In this document: piece by piece, positions 40,804 through 41,896 of the stretch
Layout: the number at the start of each line of letters is the position of its first letter
Numbering within the stretch: the stretch's first letter is position 1
Notes under the pieces: model-generated
The model's database searches: none
What the model saw: only the letters and a program-made list of their open reading frames with translations
Told to the model about the DNA's origin: nothing
Sequence record: PP925844.1
Strand: one strand, 5' to 3'
DNA length: 64,000 nucleotides
Source: Escherichia phage Elenatom
Position numbers and translations under genes: made by a program

Positions 40804-41274
40804 TTAATCATGTGTCCACACCCCATCGGTATTTGACCAAAGTCGCTGATTATCTGATCCTCGCCACAGCTTTTTGGTCGGAAGATTTTTCTCATACTTC
40901 CCATCAATAATAACATCAACATATTTAAGCATTTCTAGTTGTTTAATATCTTCAAACTTATATCCTGTCCACAACCAAATGTCTTTCTCAGGAAATCTTG
41001 CTTTAACCCAAGAAACTAAATTTGAAATCTCTTCTCGGTTCTGTGGATAAAGTGGGTCACCACCGGTTAAGGTAAGGCCTTGGATATACGATTTGCTTAA
41101 ATGGGACGCAAGTTCTTTAACGGTATTCATAGTGAATAACTGTCCGTTACGAGCATTCCAAGTACTACGATTATAACAACCTTCGCATTTATGCAAACAT
41201 CCAGTGACGAAGAGAACGACCCTACATCCAGGGCCGTTAACGAAATCGCATGGATAAATTCTATCATAATTCAT
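40804..41274 (-). CDS. nrdG: anaerobic ribonucleotide reductase activase (radical SAM)
   Basis: CLHKCEGC cysteine cluster; start set at MNYDRIYPCD (track ORF extends to 41358). Confidence 0.85.
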   Translation of the reverse strand: MNYDRIYPCDFVNGPGCRVVLFVTGCLHKCEGCYNRSTWNARNGQLFTMNTVKELASHLSKSYIQGLTLTGGDPLYPQNREEISNLVSWVKARFPEKDIWLWTGYKFEDIKQLEMLKYVDVIIDGKYEKNLPTKKLWRGSDNQRLWSNTDGVWTHD

Positions 41275-41896
41275 CTTTATATTTCCAAGTATATCCCTTA
41301 TGAATAGATTGAATTCCTTTGCAACATTTATAAACAGCAGAATGAAAAAATCCTGCATTTCTTATTTCAGTTGCTCCAGTTAGTTCTATTGTATTTCCGT
41401 CTGGTGAATAGCCAATAACCGTTTTGGTGTTAAAGCGATTTCTAGAACTATTTTTGATATGCTCTTTATGACTAGTAGACAAAGTTCTTCCTGTTAGCCC
41501 ATCAGATATCCTTTTTCCAAAATCATCAGGAAGAGTTACTTTAGACCTAGCTATGCTCATTAGCTTCTTAGTTTTATCGCTTCTTTTTGCGCCACGCTGA
41601 TTTTCAAATTTCTTAGCTTTTGCATACGCGTATTGTGAAGAAGTAACTTTTCTATGCTTACTATTACTCATTATCCAATATGCATCATACATCTTTCCAC
41701 CATATATTTTAGCCAATAAATGGTGAGCAGTATAGTGGGCCTTATAAGTTAAAAATACTAAGTTGTCTAAATCATCTGAACCACCCATACTTCTTGGAAT
41801 TATATGATGAAGTTCATACCCGGCTTTAGTTTGACGGGGCTTAGATGGGTGTTCAGCAGAATTAACTAGATTTGAATAGATTCTGTCATAATTCAT
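41264..41896 (-). mobile_element. HNH homing endonuclease gene between nrdD and nrdG
   Basis: 210-aa ORF with HHIIPRSMGGSDDLDNLVFLTYKAHYTAHH; its first 7 codons (MNYDRIY) repeat the nrdG start. Confidence 0.7.

Follow-up and report, generated by a model that had tools for sequence, protein, structure and literature searches.

Phage T4 mobC as a probable in-frame insertion at the extreme 5' end of nrdG, joined within a shared gene start

The window analysed here is a 64,000-nucleotide stretch of Escherichia phage Elenatom (PP925844.1), and all positions given below refer to it. Three tightly packed genes lie on its minus strand at 40804..43710: nrdD, an open reading frame (ORF) for a 210-aa HNH protein, and nrdG. 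In the ORF list of the window the HNH protein (41264..41896) has the N-terminus MNYDRIYSNLV and the 156-aa NrdG, read from the ATG at 41274 (40804..41274), has MNYDRIYPCDF; the translations confirm what an earlier note on this DNA had pointed out, that both proteins open with MNYDRIY. The features of the locus are as follows.

41893..43710, minus strand: nrdD, 605 aa, uninterrupted (Pfam NRDD)
41893..41896, minus strand: ATGA, in which the nrdD stop TGA overlaps the mobC start ATG (sequence)
41264..41896, minus strand: mobC, putative free-standing HNH homing-endonuclease gene, 210 aa (identity with T4 mobC, Pfam HNH)
41873..41896, minus strand: mobC codons 1-8, ATGAATTATGACAGAATCTATTCA, the shared start in its upstream copy (sequence, comparison with relatives)
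41723..41815, minus strand: HNH catalytic motif region, residues 28-58, HHIIPRSMGGSDDLDNLVFLTYKAHYTAHH (Pfam for residues 28-50; homologue conservation)
41325..41356, minus strand: terminator-like hairpin (41356-41337), then late-promoter-like TATAAATG (41332-41325), both from consensus scans only
41264..41274, minus strand: 11-nt overlap between the mobC 3' end (..GAT GAA TTA TGA) and nrdG codons 1-4
41251..41274, minus strand: functional start of nrdG, ATGAATTATGATAGAATTTATCCA, the shared start in its downstream copy, brought with the mobC cassette
41165..41274, minus strand: nrdG nt 1-110, the tract co-transferred with mobC into Jiaodaviruses (allele comparison)
40804..41274, minus strand: nrdG, 156 aa, anaerobic ribonucleotide reductase activase, mosaic (Pfam Fer4_12, 2e-50)

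The nrdD stop (TGA, 41893-41895) and the mobC start (ATG, 41894-41896) are joined in the ATGA. At the other end the mobC stop (TGA, 41264-41266) lies 8 nt inside nrdG, giving an overlap of 11 nt, and a ribosome terminating on mobC comes within 8 nt of the nrdG AUG. The description of nrdD as uninterrupted holds, the gene being a single 605-aa ORF that spans the whole Pfam NRDD model (1-562 of 562) and the glycyl-radical domain. The nrdG product carries the Fer4_12/radical-SAM domain, and with both neighbours present as complete ORFs (605 and 156 aa) giving full-length Pfam matches, the HNH gene is free-standing. Both the hairpin and TATAAATG sit inside the mobC 3' end, the latter 58 nt upstream of the nrdG ATG, and would be consistent with a review of T4 mobile elements which describes promoters serving the downstream gene embedded within mobC. 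The promoter and terminator scans of the window returned consensus-level matches only, in numbers no higher than in shuffled sequence. The same review gives mobC a '24-bp overlap' and an 'RBS 27 nt upstream', values that do not match the window or the T4 RefSeq record, both of which have a 4-nt overlap.

The earlier note had called the ORF an HNH homing endonuclease gene, and the HNH motif agrees with this. The gene is not anonymous and has long been catalogued. It is identical to T4 mobC (NP_049689) at 632/633 nt, with 99.5% aa identity, and the ORF that T4 RefSeq names mobC has an equal length of 633 nt and equal overlaps with nrdD (4 nt) and nrdG (11 nt) at the same position; a single amino acid differs (S142 here, N in T4). 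We identify the window ORF on these grounds as phage T4 mobC, a putative free-standing HNH homing-endonuclease gene, and the T4 annotation together with the near-complete identity makes it a known element. Escherichia phage Pinarejo matches the wider region at 100%, and T4 does so at 98.6% nucleotide identity over 1.5 kb; T4 nrdD, unlike that of the window, carries an intron with I-TevII. Pfam HNH (PF01844) matches mobC residues 28-50 at 26.9 bits against a cutoff of 21.4, and the HH...N...H residues are conserved in homologues, leaving the motif intact. The I-HmuI NUMOD-like domain PF22083 reaches only E=0.043 in MobC, under its cutoff. In the T4 review mobC appears among the free-standing HNH endonucleases, located at nrdG/nrdD and with the activity entry 'ND', and SegH, a GIY-YIG gene, is said to take its place in some relatives; other papers that mention mobC do no more than cite it.

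Indeed, mobC is sporadic at a fixed site. Among about 831 records matching the junction, 28 contain most of the mobC region, in addition to three Jiaodaviruses; a second HNH gene, here termed PST-type, is present in 32 and SegH in 73, and many records are insert-free. The nrdD/nrdG junction was reportedly sequenced in 18 phages by Sandegren et al. 2005. SegH occupies the same junction in other T4-like phages, and its stop overlaps the nrdG ATG, but it belongs to another nuclease family than mobC, has its own start (ATGCATAGG) in an 8-nt overlap with the nrdD end, and does not repeat the nrdG start.

Over the seven shared codons the 5' ends of mobC and nrdG (ATGAATTATGACAGAATCTATTCA and ATGAATTATGATAGAATTTATCCA) are identical at 19/21 nt, and at 21/24 when codon 8 is included, in agreement with the roughly three differences over ~21 nt first remarked upon. 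The best 21-nt identity among the 4753 pairs of ORF starts in the window is 18/21; 19/21 exceeds this background of unrelated gene starts, though unrelated genes are the wrong null. A word-indexed search for MobC homologues yielded only 12 proteins, not enough to compare N-termini statistically. HMMER, run in full against 1.8 billion representatives, found 13,297 relatives, and N-termini were counted on 160 of them. The sequence M[N/D]Y.[K/R][I/H/V]Y opens 113 of the 160, the commonest N-terminal heptapeptide being MNYQRIY; MNYDRIY itself is matched at 6/7 positions by 24 and exactly by one, an unrelated protein. In addition, tblastn matches beside nrdA, topoisomerase, helicase and other genes align with MobC from residue 1. 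By these counts, and by the alignments from residue 1 elsewhere, MNY..IY is the family's own start, and MNY.[K/R]IY the native N-terminus of the MobC HNH family whatever the insertion locus. Two independent codings of MNYDRIY, drawn with the codon usage of the window, would on average agree at 18.3/21 nt, with P(≥19) = 0.44; the nucleotide identity therefore adds nothing to that of the peptides, and we rejected it as a sign of duplication.

Only one residue of the MobC start, D4, departs from the family. It is present in 2 of the 113 family-type homologues, and the independent-site probability of MNYDRIY in a family member is ~0.003. Y3, by comparison, is present in 113/113 family-type N-termini; among the 160 homologues none starts MNF or MDF, and one only has F at position 3. 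The same kind of start is also native to NrdG itself, as seen in nrdG alleles that carry no insert: MNYDRFY in T2, MNFDRIY in Jiaodavirus JD18 and MNYDRIY in a Slopekvirus (Satellite_ER45). Taken alone, the window would look the same whether mobC carried a copy of the nrdG start or a family motif resembling NrdG. If only T4-like genomes are considered, the family N-terminus could by itself account for the seven codons. The earlier idea of a 'copy of the nrdG start' survives in part: the upstream half does follow the nrdG of the host, as described below, but the family natively starts this way as well, and the DNA identity is uninformative. A better reading of the shared start is a patch of fortuitous homology between two gene starts that acts as a recombination joint.

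Comparison with relatives locates that joint. In insert-free T2 it is the nrdG ATG that shares an ATGA with the nrdD stop, as the mobC ATG does here, and the 45 nt upstream are the same, so that the site of nrdG initiation in T2 is the one now held by mobC, as the earlier note had supposed when it had the endonuclease taking over the nrdG initiation context. Insert-free relatives do carry homology to the repeated 21 nt at this junction, the nrdG start agreeing with the mobC 5' end at 18/21 nt in T2 and 18/21 in JD18. In the Klebsiella Jiaodaviruses nrdD and nrdG are separated by an additional small gene (gp054); in the naive members JD18 and KEN25_2 the nrdG start is ATGAATTTCGACAGAATCTACCC, and the 5' end of JD18 nrdG is ATGAATTTCGACAGAATCTAC. 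Two others, Boboto and Wolf_ER13, carry a mobC identical to that of T4 at 631/633 nt (99.7%), which begins ATGAATTTCGACAGAATCTAT, opening with the local nrdG allele (ATGAATTTC..., encoding MNF). The sole differences from T4 mobC are nt 8-9, which equal the JD18 nrdG allele (Y3F), and the 45-60 nt upstream of this mobC are identical to the native gp054/nrdG junction of JD18. Since nt 8-9 are those of the local allele and the upstream flank is native, the transfer boundary falls within the shared start. We place the edge of the transferred DNA inside the mobC ORF, between nt 10 and 21, and the first MobC codons of Boboto and Wolf_ER13 are then the recipient's nrdG codons.

With mobC 99.7% identical between T4 and these Jiaodaviruses, and flanking genes only 66-72% identical to those of the window, mobC has moved recently between coliphages and Klebsiella Jiaodaviruses, by lateral transfer with co-conversion. 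A T4-type nrdG start follows mobC in the Jiaodaviruses, whose native nrdG start differs, and nrdG of Boboto and Wolf_ER13 is T4-type from nt 1 to ~110 and JD18-type beyond, a pattern we interpret as a co-conversion tract. The Jiaodavirus left joint may go back to a single event, with later spread through ordinary homology; microhomology joining therefore need not be frequent. Slopekvirus was searched as a third genus for an insert-free junction with a synthetic insert-free query, and no clean pair with and without the insert was found there. Slopekviruses commonly carry another ORF, of 175 aa, ahead of nrdG, and phage ALF_ER54, which alone matched that query in a single piece, was rejected as a deletion remnant of an endonuclease gene, not a naive allele.

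The PST-type gene occupies the same nrdG site in 22 Tequatrovirus and 10 Jiaodavirus records. Called 'mobC' in Yersinia phage PST and MobD-like, it resembles mobC of the window in site, in its 4-nt and 11-nt overlaps and in an N-terminus made of nrdG codons, and differs in its length of 279 aa, in its identity to MobC (38%, in the HNH core only) and in having 13 fused codons against 7. The C-terminal GYTWKY motif is common to MobC, the PST-type genes and the KP27-type genes described below. The first 40 nt (13 codons) of the PST-type gene are those that open the resident nrdG: in TadeuszReichstein they are of the T2 allele, in SmallBear (SmallBear_ER8) of the JD18 allele. PST-type relatives at other loci have a different N-terminus, so the fusion to nrdG is unambiguous in this gene; the fused segment, unlike the MobC start, is not a family motif. 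Both HNH ORFs can accordingly be described as in-frame fusions to the resident nrdG 5' end, each with a replacement nrdG start. Such fusion is not obligatory, as a MobC relative of 44% identity in Slopekvirus KP27 lies immediately before nrdG and keeps a start of its own, MNYQKIY, and a spacer. The proposal of an insertion footprint at the nrdG 5' end is partly borne out by the Jiaodavirus mobC with its local nrdG allele and by the 13 codons of the PST-type gene, although there is no fixed duplication. Likewise, mobC is better described as lying inside the nrdG 5' end, with a replacement start at its own 3' end, than as lying 'between nrdD and nrdG'.

The nrdG gene of the window is a mosaic. 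By sliding identities, it is made up of the mobC-linked allele over nt 1-120, a Jiaodavirus-like segment over nt 121-300 and a T2-like one over nt 301-471. Over nt 1-110 the mobC-linked allele has 12 fixed differences from three naive alleles, with synonymous differences at nt 24, 33, 36, 39, 51, 63 and 96 and further differences at nt 106-110; a cluster of synonymous changes falls in the stretch coding for the conserved YPCDFVNGPGC. By analogy with other T4 endonucleases, the predicted MobC target probably lies within or beside this tract of nt 1-110, and MobC is predicted to be an active endonuclease cleaving there. The transfers could also stem from another nuclease or from ordinary recombination.

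From these comparisons we hold with good confidence that mobC is inserted in frame within nrdG, at the extreme 5' end of that gene, that it carries a replacement nrdG start at its own 3' end and that its left joint is in the shared start. The mobile unit would run from about nt 10-21 of the mobC ORF through its stop, the last 11 nt overlapping a fresh nrdG start carried by the cassette, together with ~110-300 nt of co-converted nrdG. The native N-termini of the MobC family (MNY.[K/R]IY) and of T4-type NrdG (MN[Y/F]DR[I/F]Y) are alike, which gives the two gene starts a short stretch of fortuitous homology. In a naive genome, the incoming cassette would recombine in nrdG on its right side and join within the shared-start patch on its left, in a one-sided, microhomology-type double-strand-break repair. 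MobC would then start on the recipient's nrdG initiation site, whatever the upstream gene, and NrdG synthesis would begin at the new AUG, which precedes the mobC stop by 8 nt, probably by termination-reinitiation. The translational coupling and the repair pathway at mobC are parts of this model that we infer.

A step further, the likeness of MNY.[K/R]IY to the NrdG MNYDRIY may serve as a working 'portable left homology arm', a possibility we raise only tentatively. If true, the nrdG start of any T4-like phage could receive the cassette in frame, whatever gene lies before it, and the cassette would gain an instant working translation start and have its first codons rewritten at each jump. In an extreme version, the family-wide MNY..IY start could descend from an ancient capture of the nrdG start.

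The overlaps at both ends of mobC, and their recurrence at equal lengths (4 and 11 nt) in the unrelated PST-type gene, would also be expected if selection on expression kept MobC low through coupling to the upstream gene and supplied NrdG by reinitiation, the repeat then being a regulatory constraint and not a record of recombination. Coupling or reinitiation is indeed named in the T4 review as the likely control of promoterless mob genes. The upstream context of mobC, however, is not constant: the ATGA with nrdD in the window is replaced by a 12-nt spacer after nrdD in SHFML-11 and by a 35-nt overlap with a different gene, gp054 (gp52 in Boboto), in the Jiaodaviruses, so that no coupling geometry is conserved. 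Selection of this kind is compatible with an insertion joined in the shared start, not exclusive of it, and as the explanation of the repeat we find it rather unlikely.

Could the likeness be pure coincidence, MNYDRIY being wholly the N-terminus of the MobC family, with nothing derived from nrdG and no mechanistic meaning? The 113 homologues of many genomic contexts, the frequency of MNYQRIY, the one unrelated homologue with exactly MNYDRIY, the tblastn alignments from residue 1 beside nrdA, topoisomerase and helicase, the 18.3/21 nt expected from the peptide and the MNYQKIY kept by the KP27 gene upstream of nrdG all fit such a reading. It does not account for the Jiaodavirus mobC, in which the only two bases that differ from T4 convert codon 3 to the local nrdG allele and the native upstream flank puts the transfer boundary inside the shared start, nor for the scarcity of D4 (2/113) or the 13-codon nrdG fusion of the PST-type gene at the same site. 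For the Jiaodaviruses it is largely refuted already, and overall we consider it distinctly unlikely.

That the shared starts form direct repeats flanking a 622-bp insert recalls a classical footprint, in which an ancestral insertion duplicated 21 nt of nrdG and replaced the endonuclease N-terminus, the family motif being irrelevant; the PST-type gene did exchange its family N-terminus for 13 nrdG codons. MobC residues 1-14, however, stand in register with the family motif MNY.KIY..LI..A, which a random duplication would not lead one to expect, and the present sample suggests that MobC relatives outside nrdG loci carry MNY.RIY in register. Moreover, the upstream repeat changes with the host and is not fixed, and neither a transposase nor terminal inverted repeats are present, which makes the footprint reading very unlikely. 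A transposon-type target-site duplication was rejected on the repeats, which are 19/21 identical with the upstream one varying with the host, and a transposon-type element on the insert, in which the HNH nuclease is the only ORF. Finally, that the first seven codons are an untranslated nrdG leftover and MobC starts downstream, as the T4 review's doubts over the translation start (citing the RBS 27 nt upstream) might suggest, is hardly credible, as the next Met is residue 37, past the catalytic HH, homologues start at the equivalent MNY, and in the window the ATG is preceded, 9 nt upstream, by an in-frame TAA.

An insertion joined in the shared start has partial counterparts in well-characterised T4 systems. 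T4 mobE, between nrdA and nrdB, is like mobC a promoterless free-standing HNH gene of a ribonucleotide reductase operon, with a start that overlaps the upstream stop, an internal terminator and an MNY-type family N-terminus. MobE has been shown by experiment to nick nrdB and to home, whereas MobC is a putative endonuclease by sequence; in-frame sharing of the downstream gene's start was not found described for mobE in the literature searched. One-sided homing in T4, with homology on one side and microhomology joints on the other (PMC2988022, summarising Parker et al. 1999), as described for the td intron, would fit the left joint of mobC in the Jiaodaviruses, although the td case was shown with engineered substrates and that of mobC is drawn from natural sequences only. 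The 'genes in pieces' mobA/gene 60-39 and Aeh1 mobE/nrdA also place a Mob-type HNH gene within a host coding sequence and, like mobC, supply sequences that keep the host gene functional; in those the host gene is split into two polypeptides, whereas nrdG here stays whole because its first 7 (or, with the PST-type gene, 13) codons are present twice.

That mobC lies at this position, and that SegH can replace it, was known before, and our results are an incremental addition to a well-studied system, with no new kind of element. Sandegren et al. 2005 aside, the start-sharing architecture and its repetition in a second HNH gene appear to be unreported in the literature consulted, as does the presence of near-identical mobC in coliphages and Klebsiella phages. 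The latter provides natural evidence of very recent mobC movement between phages otherwise only about 70% identical. The analysis also narrows the likely target of the putative MobC endonuclease to nrdG nt 1 to ~110. At one site, two unrelated HNH genes are both translational fusions to the resident nrdG start, and mobC offers an example of how a free-standing endonuclease gene may enter an operon without disrupting it and without homology on one side.

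The nrdG gene of the window phage (40804-41274), like that of T4, is a three-part mosaic when its identity is compared with the insert-free nrdG genes of T2 (Tequatrovirus) and JD18 (Jiaodavirus):

nrdG nt 1-120: distinct mobC-linked allele, 78-88% identical to T2 and to JD18
nrdG nt 121-300: Jiaodavirus-like, 90-95% identical to JD18 versus 47-67% to T2
nrdG nt 301-471: T2-like, 98-100% identical

This pattern suggests that the donor of T4's mobC was a phage with a Jiaodavirus-like nrdG, and that approximately 300 nt would have been co-converted. An ATG at 41358, lying within mobC and in frame with nrdG, adds 28 codons (41275-41358) to give a 184-aa ORF, and at least one public annotation, that of Wolf_ER13 (L011, a related-phage piece, 1117-1671), calls this long form as NrdG. 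The true NrdG is the 156-aa form, as shown by conservation of the MNYDRIY start and by the alleles of insert-free phages.

The site of mobC is also occupied, in 32 phage records, by a second HNH homing-endonuclease gene, MobD-like and 279 aa long, which the annotation of Yersinia phage PST labels 'mobC'. Copies of this PST-type gene are found in two related-phage pieces:

L003 988-1827: PST-type HNH gene
L007 2177-3013: PST-type HNH gene

In two genera the PST-type gene opens with codons 1-13 of whichever nrdG is resident. Its copies in Tequatrovirus and Jiaodavirus share 86% identity, so the association of the PST-type gene with the site is older than that of mobC.

A third occupant is the SegH-like GIY-YIG gene of phage ACG-C40, where this gene and nrdG are both annotated too short:

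L004 997-1827: SegH-like GIY-YIG gene
L004 530-1000: nrdG

The ORF holding the GIY-YIG motif begins at ATGCATAGG, its start overlapping the final 8 nt of nrdD, while an ATGA overlap joins the SegH stop to the nrdG ATG; nrdG is annotated as 393 nt rather than 471. A nrdD 3' end of this C40/SegH type precedes mobC in Shigella phage SHFML-11 (L010 305-1410), separated from it by a 12-nt spacer that apparently arose through a joint at the repeated ATGCATAGG. The SHFML-11 nrdG, whose annotation is truncated, is of T4-type sequence with a short internal C40-type patch (nt ~18-55, PCC in place of PCD), which looks like a trace of successive endonuclease replacements or of target-site conversion.

Loss of an endonuclease gene is seen in Klebsiella phage ALF_ER54 (L012 183-423), where comparison with KP27 (L009 1283-2142) shows a deletion, bounded by two AAGGT microhomologies, of the KP27-type MobC-like gene. 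Only its last ~60 nt remain, the upstream ORF is joined to an out-of-frame tail, and nrdG is still preceded by endonuclease-derived context.

Within the window, the 3' part of mobC carries the following candidate signals:

41325-41356, minus strand: terminator-like hairpin, followed directly by TATAAATG

The arrangement recalls mobE, for which an internal terminator has been described; TATAAATG matches 7/8 of the T4 late-promoter consensus. Consensus hits of this kind are no more numerous in the region than shuffled expectation. At the other end of the gene, according to a T4 review, mobC and the ORF before it overlap by 24 bp and an RBS is located 27 nt upstream. Both the window and the T4 RefSeq annotation show an overlap of 4 nt, and in the window the mobC ATG is preceded, at a distance of 9 nt, by an in-frame TAA (41897-41905); the review's figures seem to refer to another mobC start call.

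The window phage, which is Pinarejo/HP3-like, carries mobC next to an intron-less nrdD (41893-43710), whereas the nrdD of T4 contains the I-TevII intron. The mobC gene and the I-TevII intron, the two mobile elements of this operon, therefore assort independently.
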